30,256 bases of DNA, from IMG/VR virus record IMGVR_UViG_2563366827_000006, positions 1 to 30,256 of that record; one strand, written 5' to 3'. Positions 10,603-28,479 of this stretch are shown here, in pieces. This DNA comes from a virus. Its lineage: Duplodnaviria; Heunggongvirae; Uroviricota; Caudoviricetes. The notes under the pieces were generated by a model that was not told where the DNA came from, made no database searches, and was given only the letters and a program-made list of their open reading frames with translations. The position numbers and the translations under genes were made by a program. The number at the start of each line of letters is the position of its first letter. Position 1 is the stretch's first letter.

Positions 10603-11700
10603 ATGAAAAAATTAACAGTGGCAATTTCTGCTGTAGCTGCATCAGTACTGATGGCGATGTCTGCTCAGGCAGCTGAAATTTATAATAAAGACAGTAACAA
10701 GCTGGATCTGTACGGGAAAGTTAATGCCAAGCACTACTTTTCCTCTAACGATGCAGATGATGGTGATACTACTTATGTTCGTCTGGGCTTCAAAGGCGAA
10801 ACCCAAATCAACGATCAGCTGACTGGTTTCGGTCAGTGGGAATATGAATTCAAAGGCAACCGCGCTGAATCTCAAGGTTCCTCCAAAGACAAAACCCGTC
10901 TTGCATTTGCAGGCCTGAAATTCGGTGACTACGGCTCAATCGATTACGGCCGTAACTACGGTGTAGCATACGACATCGGTGCGTGGACTGACGTTCTGCC
11001 AGAATTCGGTGGCGATACCTGGACCCAAACAGATGTGTTCATGACTGGTCGTACCACTGGTGTTGCAACCTATCGTAACAACGACTTCTTTGGTCTGGTT
11101 GATGGTCTGAACTTTGCTGCTCAGTACCAAGGCAAAAACGATCGTAGCGATTTCGATAACTACACCGAAGGTAACGGTGATGGCTTCGGTTTCTCTGCTA
11201 CCTATGAATACGAAGGATTCGGTATCGGTGCAACTTATGCGAAATCTGATCGTACCGACACTCAAGTTAATGCAGGGAAAGTTCTTCCTGAAGTATTTGC
11301 TTCCGGTAAAAATGCAGAAGTTTGGGCCGCAGGTCTGAAATATGACGCTAACAACATTTACCTGGCCACTACCTATTCTGAAACCCAGAATATGACTGTA
11401 TTTGCTGATCACTTCGTTGCTAATAAAGCTCAAAACTTCGAAGCTGTTGCACAATATCAGTTCGATTTCGGTCTGCGTCCGTCCGTTGCTTACCTGCAAT
11501 CTAAAGGTAAGGATCTTGGAGTATGGGGCGATCAGGACTTAGTCAAATATGTTGATGTAGGTGCAACCTATTACTTCAACAAAAATATGTCTACTTTCGT
11601 TGATTACAAAATCAACCTGCTTGACAAAAATGACTTCACTAAAGCACTCGGTGTAAGCACTGATGACATCGTTGCTGTAGGTCTGGTTTACCAGTTCTAA
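10603..11700 (+). CDS. nmpC: Outer-membrane general porin, OmpC/OmpF family (prophage-encoded NmpC/Lc type)
   Basis: 365-aa ORF with signal peptide [23 protein letters not shown] and C-terminal …VAVGLVYQF; matches remembered NmpC/Lc; sits between Q and S on the opposite strand as in DLP12 and PA-2. Confidence 0.9.
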
Positions 11701-13308: not shown

Positions 13309-13378
13309 TACTCTGATCTTACCCAGCAATAGTGGACACGCGGCTAAGTGAGTAAACTCTCAGTCAGAGGTGACTCAC

Positions 13379-13678
13379 ATGACAAAAACAGTATCAACCA
13401 GTAAAAAACCCCGTAAACAGCATTCGCCTGAATTTCGCAGTGAAGCCCTGAAGCTTGCTGAACGCATCGGTGTTACTGCCGCAGCCCGTGAACTCAGCCT
13501 GTATGAATCACAGCTCTACAACTGGCGCAGTAAACAGCAAAATCAGCAGACGTCTTCTGAACGTGAACTGGAGATGTCTACCGAGATTGCACGTCTCAAA
13601 CGCCAGCTGGCAGAACGGGATGAAGAGCTGGCTATCCTCCAAAAGGCCGCGACATACTTCGCGAAGCGCCTGAAATGA
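13379..13678 (+). CDS. insE: IS3 transposase OrfA (InsE)
   Basis: [54 protein letters not shown]… matches IS3 OrfA; ATG at 13379. Confidence 0.92.
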
Positions 13679-14541
13679 AGTATGTCTTTATTGAAAAACA
13701 TCAGGCTGAGTTCAGCATCAAAGCAATGTGCCGCGTGCTCCGGGTGGCCCGCAGCGGCTGGTATACGTGGTGTCAGCGGCGGACAAGGATAAGCACGCGT
13801 CAGCAGTTCCGCCAACACTGCGACAGCGTTGTCCTCGCGGCTTTTACCCGGTCAAAACAGCGTTACGGTGCCCCACGCCTGACGGATGAACTGCGTGCTC
13901 AGGGTTACCCCTTTAACGTAAAAACCGTGGCGGCAAGCCTGCGCCGTCAGGGACTGAGGGCAAAGGCCTCCCGGAAGTTCAGCCCGGTCAGCTACCGCGC
14001 ACACGGCCTGCCTGTGTCAGAAAATCTGTTGGAGCAGGATTTTTACGCCAGTGGCCCGAACCAGAAGTGGGCAGGAGACATCACGTACTTACGTACAGAT
14101 GAAGGCTGGCTGTATCTGGCAGTGGTCATTGACCTGTGGTCACGTGCCGTTATTGGCTGGTCAATGTCGCCACGCATGACGGCGCAACTGGCCTGCGATG
14201 CCCTGCAGATGGCGCTGTGGCGGCGTAAGAGGCCCCGGAACGTTATCGTTCACACGGACCGTGGAGGCCAGTACTGTTCAGCAGATTATCAGGCGCAACT
14301 GAAGCGGCATAATCTGCGTGGAAGTATGAGCGCAAAAGGTTGCTGCTACGATAATGCCTGCGTGGAAAGCTTCTTTCATTCGCTGAAAGTGGAATGTATC
14401 CATGGAGAACACTTTATCAGCCGGGAAATAATGCGGGCAACGGTGTTTAATTATATCGAATGTGATTACAATCGGTGGCGGCGGCACAGTTGGTGTGGCG
14501 GCCTCAGTCCGGAACAATTTGAAAACAAGAACCTCGCTTAG
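13675..14541 (+). CDS. insF: IS3 transposase OrfB (InsF; DDE catalytic domain, normally expressed as OrfAB by -1 frameshift)
   Basis: 288-aa [39 protein letters not shown]… matches IS3 OrfB; overlaps orfA 3' end. Confidence 0.92.
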
Positions 14542-19921: not shown

Positions 19922-20031
19922 TATCAATTCCTATTGGTATTGCAATGAACAGATAATAGCAATGCGTATTAACCCATTCAATAGCAAAACGTGTTTTGAC
20001 CATCAATACGCAAGCGTATAAATTAAAACTT
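19922..20031. promoter_or_regulatory. Immunity control region between divergent cro-like and cI-like genes (expected pR/pRM and oR operators)
   Basis: 110-bp AT-rich intergenic region with repeated AATAGCAA(T/A) motifs (~19955-19965, ~19981-19989) and inverted repeat TACGCAAGCGTA at 20007-20018. Confidence 0.6.
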
Positions 20032-20724
20032 ATGAAAAAAGAAACTCTTGCTGATCGCTTAAACCTAGCGATGGAACAATCTGGAATGTCTCAAGGCGCT
20101 CTTGCAAAGGCGTCTGGCGTAGCTCAACCCACAATCTGGAGACTGACAAGCGGCAACGCGCGCGGCTCAACAAAAATTGTTGAAATAGCTAATGCATTGG
20201 GTGTTCGAACAGAGTGGCTCTCATCAGGCATAGGCCCGATGAGAAATGACGGTCAACAATCAGGAAAGCCTGCTGTCAACCATTCCAAATACTTCAAGAT
20301 TGACGTTCTTGATATAGAAGTCAGTGCTGGGCCGGGTGTCATCAACCGTGAGTTTGTAGAAGTCCTACGCTCGGTTGAGTACTCGTTTGACGATGCTCGT
20401 CACATGTTCGATGGCAGGAAGGCAGAAAATATCCGCATCATTAACGTACGCGGTGACAGCATGTCAGGAACGATCGAACCAGGTGATCTTTTGTTCGTTG
20501 ATATCACTGTTAAATCTTTCGACGGTGATGGTATCTATGCGTTTCTGTACGACGACACAGCCCATGTAAAGCGCCTGCAAATGATGAAGGATAAGCTGCT
20601 GGTTATCTCTGATAACAAGAGCTACTCACCGTGGGACCCGATCGAGAAAGACGAGATGAACCGGGTGTTTATCTTCGGTAAGGTTATTGGGAGCATGCCG
20701 CAGACATATAGGAAGCATGGTTAA
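20032..20724 (+). CDS. CI-like prophage repressor (N-terminal XRE-type HTH, C-terminal LexA-like S24 autopeptidase domain)
   Basis: ORF 19996-20724 begins with TTG; ATG at 20032 gives MKKETLADRLNLAMEQSGMSQGALAKASGVAQPTIWRL…; Ala-Gly site in EVSAGPG, Ser in RGDSMSGT and Lys in HVKRL form the S24 motifs. Confidence 0.88.
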   Translation: MKKETLADRLNLAMEQSGMSQGALAKASGVAQPTIWRLTSGNARGSTKIVEIANALGVRTEWLSSGIGPMRNDGQQSGKPAVNHSKYFKIDVLDIEVSAGPGVINREFVEVLRSVEYSFDDARHMFDGRKAENIRIINVRGDSMSGTIEPGDLLFVDITVKSFDGDGIYAFLYDDTAHVKRLQMMKDKLLVISDNKSYSPWDPIEKDEMNRVFIFGKVIGSMPQTYRKHG

Positions 20725-20846
20725 AGTGAGGCTAAAAAACAGTTACAGCAATAGGCCTGTTGTTTTTCTTTAAACACGCAGTGTTAAACCGCTCTTTGAG
20801 ATGCGGAGTAATGAGATGGAAGACTTGAATCACATAAGGGTTAGTG

Positions 20847-21596
20847 ATGGAGTGCGTAGCGAGCAGCAATAGTGCAATACCTAATGTCGTTGAGGTAATA
20901 CGTCGCATCAATGAAGGTTCCACTCAGCCATTTCTTTGCAAATGTGATGATGGGCAGTTGTATGTTTTGAAGTCAAAACCATCAATGCCCCCGAAAAATC
21001 TCTTAGCTGAGTTCATTTCGGCGTGTTTGGCTAATGATATCGGCCTTCCTTTACCTGACTTTAAAATCGTATTTGTGCCAGAGGAACTTATAGAGTACTC
21101 ACCTGATCTGCAGCAACAAATTTGTACAGGATATGCCTTTGCTTCATTGTTCATTGACGGTGCAATAGCGTTAACGTTTACGCAGTCAAGAAACGAAACG
21201 ATCATCCCAGTCGAACAGCAAAAATTAATCTATGTTTTTGATAAATGGATATTAAATGCAGACAGAACGCTTACTGACAAAGGTGGAAACGTTAACATCC
21301 TTTATGACATCAGTAACGATAAGTATTATCTGATTGACCATAATCTCTCATTTGATCAGAATGCTGGACCTGAAGATTTTTCTGTGCACGTGTACGGCCC
21401 TGGTAACCGCAAATGGCAATATGATTTAGTGGATCGCGTAGAGTACCGCCAGAGGGTCGTTAACAGTTTACACAAGCTTCCTGCTATCCTTGACGAAATT
21501 CCAGAAGAGTGGATAGTAGATGAGGAGTTTTTACCTTTTGTCTGCACTACGCTAGACAAAGGTGATTGTGATGAATTTTGGAGCGCAATAGAATGA
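20847..21596 (+). CDS. Hypothetical protein with HipA-like atypical kinase-fold motifs (gene 1 of two-gene cassette in rexAB position)
   Basis: ~249 aa from ATG 20847 (AAGGG RBS at 20836-20840; ORF track starts 20844); motif YVFDKWILNADRTLTDKGGNVNIL…YLIDHNLSF resembles HipA-type catalytic loop; kinase assignment is pattern-based, not searched. Confidence 0.55.
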   Translation: MECVASSNSAIPNVVEVIRRINEGSTQPFLCKCDDGQLYVLKSKPSMPPKNLLAEFISACLANDIGLPLPDFKIVFVPEELIEYSPDLQQQICTGYAFASLFIDGAIALTFTQSRNETIIPVEQQKLIYVFDKWILNADRTLTDKGGNVNILYDISNDKYYLIDHNLSFDQNAGPEDFSVHVYGPGNRKWQYDLVDRVEYRQRVVNSLHKLPAILDEIPEEWIVDEEFLPFVCTTLDKGDCDEFWSAIE

Positions 21597-22420
21597 CAAC
21601 TCCATGCCTATATAGCATCGTTCGCTATGCGCCTTATGCGGAGACTGAAGAGTTCGCAAACATAGGCGTACTTCTGTGCGCGCCAAAAGAAAATTACTTT
21701 GATTTCCAGCTCACAAAGCGAAATGACTCTCGTGTAAAGAATTTTTTCCATGATGATTGTATTTTCCCTGTAGCAAAAGACTCAATACAAAGAGAACTAC
21801 AGTTCGCAAAAATGCATGCGACCCAGATTGTTGGACATCAACAACTTGCACAATTCTTCAGATATTTTACAAACAAAAAAGAATCAATTTTTCAGTTCAG
21901 TTCTACGAGAGTGATTCTCAGCGAAAACCCAAAAGAAGAGCTGGCCCGCATTTACAATAAATATGTAAACCACTCTGACTACACAAAAGAGCGCCGTGAA
22001 GATGTTCTAGCCAGAGAGCTAAAACGAAGTATCGATAGAATAGATGGATTGAAGAACGTCTTCAAACAAGCAACCATTGATGGGTATTTCGCAAAGTTCT
22101 CAATGCCATTGGTCGCCAAGAAGCATGACAGGATCCAATGTGCCATCAAACCTCTGGCATTCACTCAAGCTGAACCAGGAAAAATGATGGAGCATAGTGA
22201 TACTTGGGTGATGAGAATAACTCGAGCAGCAGAAGAAAACCTGCTTTCACTTGATGACATTTTATTCACAATTGAAACTCCTGAATCACCAAACTCAGGC
22301 CAAAGCAAAGTTATTGACATCATAAAGAGAACTATGGATGCTAAGAAAATAAATCATATACCTGCATCCAACCACAAAGAAACTATTGATTTTGCAAAAA
22401 AAATACTTCCCCAAGTTTAA
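21593..22420 (+). CDS. DUF3037-like protein (gene 2 of two-gene cassette, translationally coupled)
   Basis: ATG at 21593 overlaps gene-1 stop (ATGA); N-terminus MTTPCLYSIVRYAPYAETEEFANIGVLL matches my recollection of the DUF3037 N-terminal signature; ~275 aa. Confidence 0.55.
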   Translation: MTTPCLYSIVRYAPYAETEEFANIGVLLCAPKENYFDFQLTKRNDSRVKNFFHDDCIFPVAKDSIQRELQFAKMHATQIVGHQQLAQFFRYFTNKKESIFQFSSTRVILSENPKEELARIYNKYVNHSDYTKERREDVLARELKRSIDRIDGLKNVFKQATIDGYFAKFSMPLVAKKHDRIQCAIKPLAFTQAEPGKMMEHSDTWVMRITRAAEENLLSLDDILFTIETPESPNSGQSKVIDIIKRTMDAKKINHIPASNHKETIDFAKKILPQV

Positions 22421-22455
22421 AATTTATTTTTGTATGTGATATTCCTTATTAATAA

Positions 22456-22482
22456 CCCGGCCACCGTGCCGGGTTTTCTTTT
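22456..22482 (+). terminator. Rho-independent terminator after the two-gene cassette (CCCGGC-caccgt-GCCGGG followed by TTTTCTTTT)
   Basis: GC stem plus T-run 36 bp downstream of the 22420 stop. Confidence 0.7.
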
Positions 22483-22760
22483 GCCTCCCCTCATCACACA
22501 AACCGCTCAAAAAACCACCACAACCCCGCTTCAGTTATCGCTATGCGATGCAAGTCACAAAATTAATTCTTTTTGCTATCAAACATTTAATATCAAAACA
22601 CATCTAACAATAGCAATAAGTATTGATACCACCAATAGCAATAGCTATTATCACCATATCGCAACAACACAACGATACGGCAACCACCTGATTCACCGTT
22701 GCGATGACCGCTTAGATCCGCAGCTTGGTTTCAGCAGGCTCCGGGGAGTGCGAGGGGTGA
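22483..22760 (+). promoter_or_regulatory. Putative pL/oL region (leftward early promoter and operators)
   Basis: Non-coding; carries the same CAATAGCAAT-type motifs seen in the cI-cro intergenic region (22608-22618, 22633-22649, the latter with palindrome AATAGCTATT); position equals lambda pL/oL. Confidence 0.5.
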
Positions 22761-22925
22761 AACGGACGCGTGAACGTCGGTGTGACCAGCTGAAATCAAC
22801 TCAACACTTCATACCTCAGTTGCTTCAACGAGGCGACTTAGTTATGACAACCGGCGGCCATCCACCGCCAGATACTGCGCAACCCCTTATTTGTTCAGCA
22901 GCCCAGCTTACGGGCAGGAGTTTTT

Positions 22926-23132
22926 ATGGTTCATCAACATTATGGAACGCAGACCGTTAATCGAGGTGCGGTCATGCCAGGAATGCTGGTCAAACACAAA
23001 GATGGTACCTGGACTGCATCAGCTAATTTACGCGGACGGCTTTATCTGCATCGCGGCATCGAGCGCACTTATACCCGTGATTTGCTCGTGGAAGTTTTTC
23101 TCGACGGACGCGGTAACGGCCTGAATCACTAA
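22926..23132 (+). CDS. Hypothetical small protein (68 aa) at the kil/cIII position upstream of gam
   Basis: ATG preceded by AGGAG at 7 nt; [68 protein letters not shown]; no recognised homolog. Confidence 0.55.
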
Positions 23133-23509: not shown

Positions 23510-24295
23510 ATGAGTACAGCACTCGCAACGCTGGCAGGGAAGCTGGCTGAACGTGTCGGCATGGATTCTGTCGACCCACAGGAACTGATCACCACTCTTC
23601 GCCAGACGGCATTTAAAGGTGATGCCAGCGATGCGCAGTTCATCGCATTGCTGATCGTCGCCAACCAGTACGGCCTTAATCCGTGGACGAAAGAAATTTA
23701 CGCCTTCCCTGATAAGCAGAACGGCATTGTTCCGGTGGTGGGCGTTGATGGCTGGTCCCGCATCATCAATGAAAACCAGCAGTTTGATGGCATGGACTTT
23801 GAGCAGGACAATGAATCCTGTACATGCCGGATTTACCGCAAGGACCGTAATCATCCGATCTGCGTTACCGAATGGATGGATGAATGCCGCCGCGAACCAT
23901 TCAAAACCCGCGAAGGCAGAGAAATCACGGGGCCGTGGCAGTCGCATCCCAAACGGATGTTACGGCATAAAGCCATGATTCAGTGCGCCCGTCTGGCCTT
24001 CGGATTTGCTGGTATCTATGACAAGGATGAAGCCGAGCGCATTGTCGAAAATACTGCATACACTGCAGAACGTCAGCCAGAACGCGACATCACTCCGGTT
24101 AACGATGAAACCATGCAGGAGATTAACACTCTGCTGATCGCCCTAGATAAAACATGGGATGACGACTTATTGCCGCTCTGTTCCCAGATATTTCGCCGCG
24201 ACATTCGCGCATCGTCAGAACTGACACAGGCCGAAGCAGTGAAAGCTCTTGGATTCCTGAAACAGAAAGCCACTGAGCAGAAGGTGGCAGCATGA
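23510..24295 (+). CDS. bet: Bet (Red-beta single-strand annealing recombinase)
   Basis: 261-aa [62 protein letters not shown]… matches lambda Bet. Confidence 0.96.
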
Positions 24296-24972
24296 TACCG
24301 GACATTATCCTGCAGCGTACCGGGATCGACGTGAGAGCTGTCGAACAGGGGGATGATGCATGGCACAAATTACGGCTCGGCGTCATCACCGCTTCAGAAG
24401 TTCACAACGTGATAGCAAAGCCCCGCTCAGGAAAGAAGTGGCCTGACATGAAAATGTCCTACTTCCACACCCTGCTGGCTGAGGTTTGCACCGGTGTGGC
24501 TCCGGAAGTTAATGCTAAGGCGCTGGCCTGGGGAAAACAGTACGAGAACGACGCCAGAACCCTGTTTGAATTCACTTCCGGCGTGAATATTACTGAATCC
24601 CCGATCATCTATCGCGACGAAAGTATGCGCACCGCCTGCTCCCCCGATGGTTTATGCAGTGACGGCAACGGCCTTGAACTGAAATGCCCGTTTACCTCCC
24701 GGGATTTCATGAAATTCCGGCTCGGTGGTTTCGAGGCAATAAAATCGGCTTACATGGCCCAGGTGCAGTACAGCATGTGGGTGACGCGAAAAGATGCCTG
24801 GTACTTTGCCAACTATGACCCGCGCATGAAGCGTGAAGGCCTGCATTATGTCGTGATTGAGCGGAATGAAAAGTACATGGCGAGTTTTGACGAGATGGTG
24901 CCGGAGTTCATCGAAAAAATGGACGAGGCACTGGCTGAAATTGGTTTTGTATTTGGGGAGCAATGGCGATGA
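24292..24972 (+). CDS. exo: Exo (lambda 5'-3' exonuclease, Red-alpha)
   Basis: 226-aa [57 protein letters not shown]… matches lambda Exo; ATGA overlap with bet. Confidence 0.96.
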
Positions 24973-26137: not shown

Positions 26138-26740
26138 TCATTCAGTATCATCACGCGCGGTCTGTGCATATGTCACTACCGCACCTAATGTATTAATTTT
26201 CTTTTCAACATAGATAATATTATCGTACTCATAATTGCCATACGGATAGCAAATGCGAATATTCTCATGTAGATCGGGGTCATCCACCTCAGCTCCAGAA
26301 CAACTTTTTGAACTACCGGAAGTATACCGATACGGTGCAACATAAGACGATGTCTCTCCAGGCAAAAAATAAGTTAGTGTTGTAAGGGGTATAATCAGAA
26401 AAAATCCAGAAAATATGCACATCCCTGCATAAACCTTAAGGTATGCTGACAGACTCTTCCAGCCGTTTTGTTTTACTATCCCCTTCTTAACCCAAAACAG
26501 AGATAACAGAAAAGCTATTCCCATGCTAAACAGAATGTAATAGTGGGATATACTCTGATTAAGAAACGTGACCCTGTAGATATCTGCCCGCCACCAGAAG
26601 AAAAGGAAAATAAAGATCAGCCCTGAAACTGTCATGCAAATCAAATAAGGATACGAATCTTTTTTCATGTTTAGCGCCCATAAAATTTTTCCTGCCCCGG
26701 ACAAATTTACCATCCATTTTTTGCGCAGAAAATAGCTCAT
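26138..26740 (-). CDS. Hypothetical integral membrane protein (multiple TM helices; opposite-strand moron; start codon uncertain)
   Basis: 200-aa ORF with hydrophobic segments (LICMTVSGLIFIFLFFWW, YYILFSMGIAFLLSLFWV, VYAGMCIFSGFFLIIPLTTLTYFL) and a Cys/Tyr-rich C-terminal tail; AT-rich; no SD at any candidate ATG. Confidence 0.55.
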   Translation of the reverse strand: MSYFLRKKWMVNLSGAGKILWALNMKKDSYPYLICMTVSGLIFIFLFFWWRADIYRVTFLNQSISHYYILFSMGIAFLLSLFWVKKGIVKQNGWKSLSAYLKVYAGMCIFSGFFLIIPLTTLTYFLPGETSSYVAPYRYTSGSSKSCSGAEVDDPDLHENIRICYPYGNYEYDNIIYVEKKINTLGAVVTYAQTARDDTE

Positions 26741-26952
26741 TACTTACTGCACAATAATACACAAAATTGCGTAAATTTTTTGCATGGATTTTAGCTCTTT
26801 CAGCCGACGTTTAAGGGGTAAATAGCATTTCCTAAAAGCAACTGCACCAACCCAACAGAATGGGCTACCGCTTACGTTGAGAGCAAAAAAGTGTATAGCA
26901 GCAATGAACAGCATCCTCGCACTGACGGGGATTTCTTTTATATGGGGATAAT

Positions 26953-27753
26953 ATGACTATCCACTTTCACGGCAGCCCAATATGGGGGGATGAGCATGCC
27001 CCTACAGATATGCTGATTAAAGCCCTTTACCGTGATGGTGGGGCTTTTGTTTCATTTGCCAGACCAGAGCAGATGAAAAAGATTGCCATGTTCCCTTGTG
27101 ATATACGCCTTGATAACGGTGCTTTTAGCGACTGGATGAAAGCATTAAAGAAAGGCACTCCGGTAGACTGGAGTAAGAGACGAGCAAAATTCTACGACTT
27201 TGTTGGGAAGTGGTTCAGCAGAATTGAATGGTTTCTTATACCTGACGTTATCGAAGGGACAGAGGCAGAAAACGACGAGCAGATTGAGTTGGTTCCTGAT
27301 TGGCTAAAATCAAAAGCGGTTCCGGTCTGGCATACCGACGAATCAATTGAACGTCTTTTACGCCTTTCTGGCAAATTTGAATGGGTGGCGATTGGATGCT
27401 GCGGCCCACACAGGAACATACGCTCTAAATGGTGGGAACAGAGAATGGATGAAGTTTTCACTGAGCTTTATATCAATCGTAATTTGAAAGTGAAAATTCA
27501 TGGTCTTCGAATGCTCGACGTGAGAGTTCTTGGTATGTATCCGTTCGCCAGTGCGGATTCTACTAATGTTGCTGTTAACGTACCGAAGACAGAGAAGCGA
27601 TTTCCTGAGATTACCGACAAACTGGCACGTACAGCTGTACTTCGCGCTGCTATTGAAAAGGTGCACCCGCCATCGATATCAGCATGGGTAGACAGAAAGA
27701 TGAGAGAGCCGGCGCAAGCCGGTTTTTTATTTGAATTCACCGACGCCGCTTAA
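26953..27753 (+). CDS. Hypothetical protein (266 aa); weak, unverified resemblance to TGT/DpdA-type transglycosylase motifs
   Basis: ORF with GGGGA RBS; motifs …IRLDNGAFSDW… and …HGLRMLDV… loosely recall TGT catalytic Asp motifs (…DSGGFQ…, …GMFD…); own AT-rich upstream region. Confidence 0.5.
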   Translation: MTIHFHGSPIWGDEHAPTDMLIKALYRDGGAFVSFARPEQMKKIAMFPCDIRLDNGAFSDWMKALKKGTPVDWSKRRAKFYDFVGKWFSRIEWFLIPDVIEGTEAENDEQIELVPDWLKSKAVPVWHTDESIERLLRLSGKFEWVAIGCCGPHRNIRSKWWEQRMDEVFTELYINRNLKVKIHGLRMLDVRVLGMYPFASADSTNVAVNVPKTEKRFPEITDKLARTAVLRAAIEKVHPPSISAWVDRKMREPAQAGFLFEFTDAA

Positions 27754-27810
27754 TGCGGATTTCTTTTATATGAACTCGCTACGGCGGGTTTTATTTTATG
27801 GAGACAAGAA

Positions 27811-28155
27811 ATGTCAGATTTGGCTATGAAGGTTTTGAAATGGCAATCGACCGGCGATGTCGGCATCAGTAGCGCAACTCTTGCCTCAATCGCATGTGGA
27901 CTGAAAAAGAATATCTATGGTCATCACTTCGGCGCTCCACATGACGCAGCAGATTTCAGACGATGCGTTGCACTTGTTGAGCAGATTCCAGAAATCAGAG
28001 ATTCATTCAACAAGGTTGCAAAGCGCGTTCCGGCATTCAAAGGAATCCTCAACGAATGGGATTCCCTCGTTGCTCTGTTGAAGTCTGAAATGAAGATACA
28101 CGGAAACAAAGCACCAGAGACTTACAGAAGAATCAGCGAGCTACGCAAGGACTAA
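27811..28155 (+). CDS. Hypothetical protein (114 aa), unknown function
   Basis: ORF MSDLAMKVLKWQSTGDVGISSATLASIACGLKKNIYGHHFGAPHDAADFRRC… with GGAG RBS 9 nt upstream; terminator follows. Confidence 0.55.
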   Translation: MSDLAMKVLKWQSTGDVGISSATLASIACGLKKNIYGHHFGAPHDAADFRRCVALVEQIPEIRDSFNKVAKRVPAFKGILNEWDSLVALLKSEMKIHGNKAPETYRRISELRKD

Positions 28156-28212: not shown

Positions 28213-28236
28213 GCCGCATCAATGCGGTTTTTTATT
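28213..28236 (+). terminator. Rho-independent terminator (GCCGCA-tcaa-TGCGG followed by TTTTTTTATT)
   Basis: GC stem plus 7-T run downstream of the 114-aa gene. Confidence 0.7.
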
Positions 28237-28278: not shown

Positions 28279-28479
28279 ATGCAACACGAACTACAACCTG
28301 ATTCACTGGTTGATTTGAAATTCATCATGGCTGATACTGGCTTCGGTAAGACCTTCATCTATGACCGGATTAAGTCCGGCGACCTGCCTAAAGCCAAAGT
28401 TATCCACGGACGAGCAAGATGGTTATATCGTGACCATTGTGAATTCAAAAATAAGCTCTTAAGCCGCGCCAATGGGTAA
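28279..28479 (+). CDS. torI: TorI-like excisionase / recombination directionality factor (AlpA/Xis family winged-helix)
   Basis: ORF 28264-28479 begins with TTG; ATG at 28279 (GGAGA RBS) gives 66 aa MQHELQPDSLVDLKFIMADTGFGKTFIYDRIKSGDLPKAKVIHGRARWLYRDHCEFKNKLLSRANG, matching remembered KplE1 TorI; adjacent to an argW core repeat. Confidence 0.75.
   Translation: MQHELQPDSLVDLKFIMADTGFGKTFIYDRIKSGDLPKAKVIHGRARWLYRDHCEFKNKLLSRANG

Follow-up and report, generated by a model that had tools for sequence, protein, structure and literature searches.

A predicted DpdA-type DNA-guanine transglycosylase from the distal early-left operon of an Escherichia coli lambdoid prophage

Does a 266-aa gene lying near the attachment site of an Escherichia coli prophage encode an enzyme that writes 7-deazaguanine bases into DNA, and does the small gene that follows it take part in the same function? 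The question is raised by the IMG/VR record IMGVR_UViG_2563366827_000006, whose 30,256 nucleotides (hereafter the window) represent a lambdoid prophage integrated in E. coli at the argW/KplE1 site. An earlier note on this DNA had pointed to two adjacent open reading frames (ORFs) at one end of it and had guessed that the longer product could resemble tRNA-guanine transglycosylase (TGT) or its phage counterpart DpdA. The guess is borne out by profile links to the DpdAs of phage 9g and of the Dp-1 type, by the invariance of the catalytic Asp residues and by the fact that a near-identical protein, gp29 of phage HK106, is catalogued as DpdA. The gene concerned is the following.

26953..27753, plus strand: dpdA-like gene, encoding a predicted 266-aa phage-type DNA-guanine transglycosylase (TGT superfamily, 'singleton DpdA' clade)

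Both ORFs, 26953-27753 (266 aa) and 27811-28155 (114 aa), start with ATG on the plus strand and are separated by 57 nt. Their coordinates are as previously described, and each is preceded by a site resembling a ribosome-binding site: the Shine-Dalgarno-like GGGGA at 26944-26948, 4 nt upstream of the first ATG, and GGAG at 27800-27803, 7 nt upstream of the second. Because both have many homologues (2230 in a 90%-clustered database for the 266-aa protein and 63 clusters for the 114-aa protein), the two genes are real.

We looked at the relatives of the 266-aa protein. In PHROGs it falls into phrog_887, 'queuine tRNA-ribosyltransferase' (expect value E = 3e-102), which also takes in proteins of Salmonella phage 7-11, Pantoea phage MED16 and Caulobacter phage DMCA as well as the DpdA of Streptococcus phage MS1, a relative of Dp-1 whose DpdA gene sits inside a queC-queD-queE-folE-Vut operon. 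A tblastn search against 50,697 phage records matched it in 109 phages, with identities of 99.2% in Escherichia phage HK106, 64% in Pectobacterium phage PEAT2, 58% in 7-11, 43% in MED16 and about 35% in ORFs of temperate phages of Salmonella and Shigella, P22-like ones among them (SPN3UB, BTP1, SfI). An exhaustive hidden Markov model (HMM) search of 1.84 billion representatives (50% clustering) returned 1825 family members, 137 of them at E <= 1e-30. The HK106 counterpart is gp29 (YP_007151699.1 / AFH20717.1), equal in length and likewise placed immediately upstream of xis/int in the early-left operon of a lambdoid phage, and RefSeq names it 'queuine tRNA-ribosyltransferase'. The family has thus already been catalogued, both in the RefSeq viral annotation and in the literature, since the DpdA list of Hutinet 2019 (Supplementary Data 1) includes HK106 (JQ086369, YP_007151699), SfI, PEAT2, 7-11, SE131, SEN1, SPN3UB and BTP1. 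The gene is called 'hypothetical protein' by RefSeq in every E. coli chromosome record listed, out of 82 complete carrier genomes.

Profile comparisons were made with three alignments: A1, 32 sequences of the 266-aa family; A2, 32 sequences of Dp-1-type DpdAs; and A4, 61 diverse homologues. With hhalign, A1 matched the experimentally validated DpdA of phage 9g (95.4%, E = 1.8e-8, 150 columns), MS1 DpdA (96.9%) and A2 (98.4%, E = 8.4e-15), and the motifs were in register. When A1, A2, A4 and merged profiles were compared with E. coli Tgt or with an 81-sequence gamma-proteobacterial TGT alignment, the result was not significant (E = 0.1-0.5); this TGT alignment is too shallow (effective sequence number, Neff, 2.2), and a scan of contigs yielded only TGTs at least 68% identical to that of E. 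coli. Scans of both ORFs against Pfam, NCBIfam and PADLOC gave no matches, including none to PF23859 or to the PADLOC Dpd models, and searches of the PDB sequences with phmmer and hmmsearch (266-aa protein, A1, A2, A4) yielded nothing but noise, for example GCN4, a metalloproteinase and AcrIC9. The validated 9g DpdA likewise matches neither the Pfam TGT and DpdA families nor any PDB sequence, and MS1 DpdA stays below the threshold for PF23859; the Pfam and PDB negatives of the 266-aa protein consequently carry no weight. At the level of fold, the predicted (beta/alpha)8 barrel resembles TGT and DpdA structures more than other barrels, and a published HHpred search links the MED16 protein to the T. 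maritima TGT 2ASH at 99.18%. The earlier note had named homology to an unrelated family, for example the YfdQ family of the K-12 CPS-53 prophage, as a result that would overturn its guess. We looked for similarity to YfdQ (DUF2303) and found none: YfdP, Q, R, S, T, YpdJ and TorI of CPS-53 show no similarity to either ORF.

The conservation of the family points to an active site. Among the 61 homologues of A4, which are 24-49% identical to the query, only six columns are invariant, D54, D98, H127, H183, D202 and S203. The codons concerned are listed below.

27112..27114, plus strand: Asp54 (LD54NGAF58), predicted general acid/base, with F58 as the predicted base-stacking 'gate'; invariant in A1 and A4
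27244..27246, plus strand: Asp98 (IPD98VI), predicted base-recognition Asp; invariant in A1 and A4, aligned with SLD94VIPG of MS1
27331..27333, plus strand: His127 (PVWH127), predicted base-contacting His; invariant in A1 and A4, H141 in 9g and H138 in MS1
27499..27501, plus strand: His183 (KIH183G), equivalent of the DpdA1 hallmark His196 of 9g; invariant, KVH196G in 9g and KVH198G in MS1
27556..27558, plus strand: Asp202 (SAD202ST), predicted catalytic nucleophile; D202 and S203 invariant, SCD215SS in 9g and SAD217ST in MS1

These residues lie at, or just after, the C-terminal ends of the model strands E50-54, E91-95, E125-127, E181-184 and E200-203, and the C-terminal ends of the strands are the usual active-site face of a TIM barrel. 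The three Asp residues, D54, D98 and D202, are also kept in the DpdAs of 9g and MS1, and the maximum-accuracy path of the non-significant hhalign comparison with TGT pairs them with D89 (DSGGFQ), D143 and D264 (MFDCV) of the E. coli enzyme. The D54 motif aligns with LDSGAF of 9g and VDSSAY of MS1, and its D-x-x-x-F spacing is that of D95/F99 in the bacterial DpdA (bDpdA). Residue order and spacing as a whole match the bDpdA active site, D95/F99, D130, H181, G206-G207, L236 and D256 (PMC10164549). We propose that His127 is the equivalent of bDpdA His181, as it precedes D202 by 75 residues, the same distance as between H181 and D256. The presence of His183 agrees with the placement of the gamma-proteobacterial singleton clade nearest to the DpdA1 subfamily, DpdA2 enzymes being without the conserved His at position 196 (Hutinet 2019).

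Two short motifs had first suggested a transglycosylase, LDNGAFS and GLRMLD, and both are present, at residues 53-59 and 184-189. LDNGAFS proved to be the counterpart of the TGT motif DSGGFQ, which holds the general acid/base. The Asp of GLRMLD, D189, does not qualify as the nucleophile, for which D202 (SADST) is the candidate: D189 is kept only in the close singleton clade, is replaced by Q in DMCA, A in MS1 and S in 9g, and is not invariant in the 61-homologue alignment. R186 and D189 are specific to the singleton clade and missing from the DpdA1s of 9g and the Dp-1 type. The earlier note had also failed to see the zinc-binding motif CxCxxC...H, rightly so. The 266-aa protein has three Cys and no CxCxxC, and neither A1 nor A2 holds a conserved Cys/His column after residue 203. 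The motif is equally missing from 9g DpdA and from the Dp-1-type family, and since the phage DpdAs examined share its absence, the lack of a zinc site sets phage DpdAs apart from TGT and bDpdA and does not exclude membership.

Compared with its better-known relatives, the protein is a compact one. It has in common with DpdA1 (phage 9g, Escherichia phage CAjan, Streptococcus phages Dp-1/MS1) the motifs D-[NS]-[GS]-A-[FY], P-x-[WF]-H, K-[IV]-H-G and [AC]-D-S-[ST], but it is only about 18-22% identical in pairwise comparison, about 50 residues shorter, and not accompanied by folE/queCDE or amidotransferase genes. All the catalytic motifs are found in 7-11 (58%) and MED16 (43-47%), which belong with SE131, SEN1, SPN3UB, BTP1, SfI and PEAT2 to the 'DpdA-only' group of phages without preQ0 (7-cyano-7-deazaguanine) genes (Hutinet 2019). 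The bDpdA of Salmonella Montevideo (PDB 7UI4) has 413 residues and four insertions, including the large Ins8 domain, that the 266-aa protein lacks; it also has a CxCx2Cx22H zinc site and needs the DpdB ATPase (PMC10164549), neither of which occurs in our protein or its neighbourhood. Neither ORF gave a PADLOC match to DpdB, DpdC or the DpdD-K partners, the neighbours being a membrane protein, the 114-aa orphan and torI. In contrast to TGT and archaeal TGT (ArcTGT; PF01702), from which it also differs in its predicted substrate, DNA, the protein has no N-terminal beta-sheet lid, zinc subdomain or tRNA-binding domains, and the hhalign comparisons above gave no significant sequence similarity to them. 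Nor is it similar in sequence to Cap10, the TGT-like component of the type IV cyclic-oligonucleotide-based antiphage signalling system (CBASS) that modifies protein, not DNA; no CBASS genes lie nearby. The corresponding PDB entry, 9NTN, is titled as Cap10 in complex with a CdnD cyclase containing 'NDG modification'.

We then considered where the gene lies and how it might be expressed. Landmarks on the same strand are as follows.

19996-20724, plus strand: cI-like repressor
23510-24972, plus strand: bet and exo
28279-28479, plus strand: torI, excisionase or recombination directionality factor (as annotated by RefSeq in strain C41, whose locus is 99.8% identical; layout of K-12 CPS-53)

A DksA/TraR-type zinc-finger gene follows bet/exo on the plus strand, whereas cII, O, P, NinB and Q are on the minus strand. 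torI marks the right end of the KplE1-type prophage, and the host gene cscB comes next on the minus strand. The two ORFs therefore come last in the early-left (PL-direction) operon, where they fill the mosaic 'ea' slot that separates exo/bet from torI (xis). Several hairpins lie in this part of the operon.

26913-26932, plus strand: terminator-like hairpin directly 5' of the dpdA-like gene
27703-27728, plus strand: terminator-like hairpin with a T-run and an 11-bp stem, inside the last ~50 nt of the dpdA-like ORF
27772-27791: terminator-like hairpin between the two genes
28213-28228, plus strand: terminator-like hairpin with a T-run after the 114-aa gene (6-bp stem with 4 GC pairs)

The region upstream of the 266-aa gene had been called AT-rich, and it is so mildly (GC 0.44 as compared with 0.488 for the whole window), but a consensus scan of the plus strand found no sigma-70-like promoter there; we thus rejected the idea that the gene has a promoter of its own. 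With a hairpin upstream and no such promoter, it is probably driven by antiterminated early-left transcription. As for the strong terminator said to follow the 114-aa gene, a hairpin with a T-run does exist at 28213-28228, but with its short stem it is a moderate one. The hairpin classed as strong is that at 27703-27728, about 25 nt before the dpdA-like stop codon. It encodes the C-terminal tail, which is variable in A1 and poorly defined in the model (predicted local distance difference test, pLDDT, <50 for residues 256-266). This hairpin may mark a mosaic recombination junction, as the reading frame of P0006, a prophage relative, runs on past the equivalent point into a Dam domain.

Taken together, these results lead us to favour, with a probability of roughly 0.7, a compact (beta/alpha)8-barrel DpdA that is expressed from the distal early-left operon after induction or infection and writes sparse 7-deazaguanine marks with a base made by the host. 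By analogy with TGT and bDpdA, Asp54 would act as general acid/base and activate a target guanine in double-stranded phage DNA, Asp202 would attack C1' to give a covalent enzyme-DNA intermediate, and Asp98, His127 and the G148-G151 loop would read the base. The guanine would then be replaced by preQ0, or possibly by its amide, 7-amido-7-deazaguanine (ADG). E. coli has a FolE-QueD-QueE-QueC pathway, which would supply this base. PHROG scans of 20 early-region ORFs (the structural-gene half and the prophage to the left of the window lie outside these scans) detected none of FolE, QueC, QueD, QueE and YhhQ/Vut; as no preQ0 synthesis gene is encoded among the ORFs scanned, the base must come from the host. 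In line with this, the 9g DpdA expressed alone in E. coli inserts 2'-deoxy-preQ0 (dPreQ0).

The product would be sparse and probably sequence-specific dPreQ0 or the deoxynucleoside of ADG (dADG), going by 7-11 and MED16, in which about 0.02-0.13% of G is modified, whereas DpdA1 phages replace 25-32%. The reported values are 50 dADG per 10^6 nt for 7-11, and 354 dADG and 3 dPreQ0 per 10^6 nt for MED16. Direct insertion of ADG is one possible route to the amide that would explain dADG without DpdC. The marks may blunt some host nucleases, but MED16 DNA was still cut by most of the enzymes tested, which makes protection the weakest link. A variant that we hold only tentatively, at low probability, is that the singleton DpdAs of temperate lambdoid phages make sparse, site-specific marks from a host intermediate (for example ADG, an intermediate of the QueC reaction) and do not serve classical anti-restriction. 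If so, the marks might serve in escape from defences other than restriction-modification, as a packaging or replication signal, or in marking the chromosome of the lysogen, and the clade-specific invariant pair R186/D189 could be the basis of such an altered substrate or target specificity.

The genomic neighbourhoods of relatives link the family to 7-deazaguanine metabolism. The P0006 protein, 76% identical to the 266-aa protein, is a full DpdA-like domain fused to a phage Dam-type DNA adenine methyltransferase, and its start overlaps the end of a gene of the Vut_1/YhhQ family, that of the preQ0 transporters, in the early operon of a prophage close to an integrase. PEAT2 shows the identical Vut-dpdA overlap, and the DMCA homologue lies directly 3' of a QueD gene. 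The window, unlike PEAT2 and P0006, is without the transporter gene next to dpdA.

Two further observations concern such neighbourhoods. In enterobacterial prophage-like contigs (L093/L094, 4540-6383), a Vut_1 (YhhQ-family) gene overlaps the start of a 460-aa DpdA-Dam fusion ORF, again near an integrase and with 42 member sequences; the fusion, if not a sequencing artefact, would join two kinds of DNA modification in one polypeptide. In an 80-kb phage-like contig (L091, Logan SRR20672926, 3444-6870), YfdP (PF27127) and a DUF2303/YfdQ-family gene lie a few genes 5' of a dpdA homologue in the same operon. This layout indicates that the K-12 CPS-53 yfdPQ module and dpdA are distinct genes able to share an early-region neighbourhood, which may be where the earlier idea of YfdQ came from.

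Could the substrate be RNA? The founding members of the superfamily are tRNA enzymes, the relatives bear a tRNA-ribosyltransferase name in RefSeq and PHROGs, DpdA2 enzymes are promiscuous for preQ0, 7-aminomethyl-7-deazaguanine (preQ1) as well as 7-carboxy-7-deazaguanine (CDG), and the very low modification of 7-11 and MED16 DNA could be a side activity, all of which would suit a TGT-fold enzyme acting on host or phage tRNA, or using preQ1, queuine or archaeosine (G+), to reprogramme translation. We nevertheless consider this unlikely, since outside the clade the nearest significant homologues are DpdAs whose activity on DNA has been demonstrated (9g), 7-deazaguanines have been detected in the DNA of two clade members, and one relative is fused to a DNA adenine methyltransferase; moreover, domains for tRNA recognition, such as the PUA or C-terminal ones of ArcTGT, were found in no relative, and the 266-aa protein is a bare barrel. 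Somewhat less probable still is a 'moron' expressed in the lysogen and marking the host chromosome or acting on incoming DNA for defence or self-recognition, like the modification half of a Dpd island. The gene does adjoin the att site, a typical place for a moron, and is flanked by terminator-like hairpins; bacterial DpdA modifies the host genome at <0.1% of G, and the prophage has a probable defence cassette after cI. However, the scan showed no promoter-like site upstream, DpdB/DpdC and a restriction partner are missing, PADLOC gave no match, and the gene also occurs in the strictly lytic phages 7-11, MED16 and PEAT2, in early or DNA-metabolism clusters. Reversal of 7-deazaguanine insertion is, besides, chemically unfavourable for TGT-type enzymes. 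That the barrel is unrelated or degenerate (another glycosidase, an aldolase-like enzyme or an inactive relic), with a TGT likeness by coincidence, is the least credible reading of all.

There remains the second gene.

27811..28155, plus strand: 114-aa orphan all-alpha early protein (phrog_1229), an independent mosaic module

A two-gene system, in which the 114-aa protein would be a specificity factor, an activator comparable to DpdB for bDpdA, or an enzyme converting preQ0 to ADG, would account for the arrangement (adjacent genes on the same strand, so close together and bracketed by terminator-like hairpins), and the source of dADG in singleton phages does lack an explanation. The distribution of the two genes largely refutes it, and we regard it as very improbable. 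The dpdA of HK106, unlike the one in the KplE1/argW-type prophage of the window, is followed by a 55-aa lambdap35-like ORF; phage 434 has the 114-aa gene without dpdA in an otherwise identical layout; and no homologue of the 114-aa protein was found near dpdA in PEAT2, 7-11, MED16, MS1 or DMCA. Of 5426 E. coli genomes, 82 have a near-identical allele of the 266-aa gene and 963 one of the 114-aa gene, and the joint region is covered to 80% or more in just 12. The protein itself is an all-alpha bundle in which none of the conserved residues looks catalytic, and no structural neighbour was found for it. The 'gene pair' is thus a pair by adjacency and strand only: it is not kept together in HK106, phage 434 or the five other dpdA phages named above, and the 114-aa gene is unrelated to DpdA function.

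Other features of the prophage were noted. Just 5' of the dpdA-like gene and antisense to the early-left operon lie a 200-aa predicted membrane protein (26138-26740, minus strand), whose C-terminal part matches phrog_1416, and a 56-aa ORF (26744-26914, minus strand). Pfam gave no match for the membrane protein, and we therefore rejected it as a Vut/YhhQ transporter. Phage 434 has a similarly placed minus-strand pair annotated 'putative membrane protein' (CPT_434B_36, _35), the likeness being one of position and annotation only. The pair at 26138-26914 could be a moron expressed by the lysogen. Directly 3' of the cI-like repressor, in the slot of rexAB in lambda, two ORFs (20844-22420 and 22430-22960, plus strand) encode a HipA_2-like kinase (PF20613, E = 1e-76) and a DUF3037 protein (PF11236) that match A and B of PDC-M66, a candidate defence system in PADLOC (E = 6e-15 and 4e-16). 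A third ORF, of 176 aa, is without match in PHROG, Pfam and PADLOC. Together these ORFs probably serve the prophage as a cassette for defence or exclusion. In the nin region, between NinB and the HNH/Q genes, two IS3-like transposase ORFs (13370-14541, plus strand; phrog_151 and phrog_157) indicate that the prophage may be partly disabled. Finally, a 365-aa ORF between the lysis genes and Q (10603-11700, plus strand; phrog_410) probably encodes an outer-membrane protein of lysogenic conversion; RefSeq annotates a gene of similar prophages as 'porin', an annotation not mapped onto this ORF.

The main value of these results is a correction of annotation in E. coli chromosomes. The 82 carrier genomes include the laboratory and industrial strain E. 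coli W. We found no direct work on the DpdA of prophages or temperate phages beyond the papers of 2019 and 2021, and the widespread DpdA-only enzymes pose a puzzle, as modification is very low, the origin of dADG unexplained and protection undemonstrated. Inducible E. coli lysogens, or HK106, would offer a convenient system for the role of these enzymes in temperate phages. It may be that certain E. coli prophages, drawing on the host queuosine pathway, mark DNA with 7-deazaguanine, and such marks would be relevant to restriction, to nanopore base-calling and to studies of phage defence.

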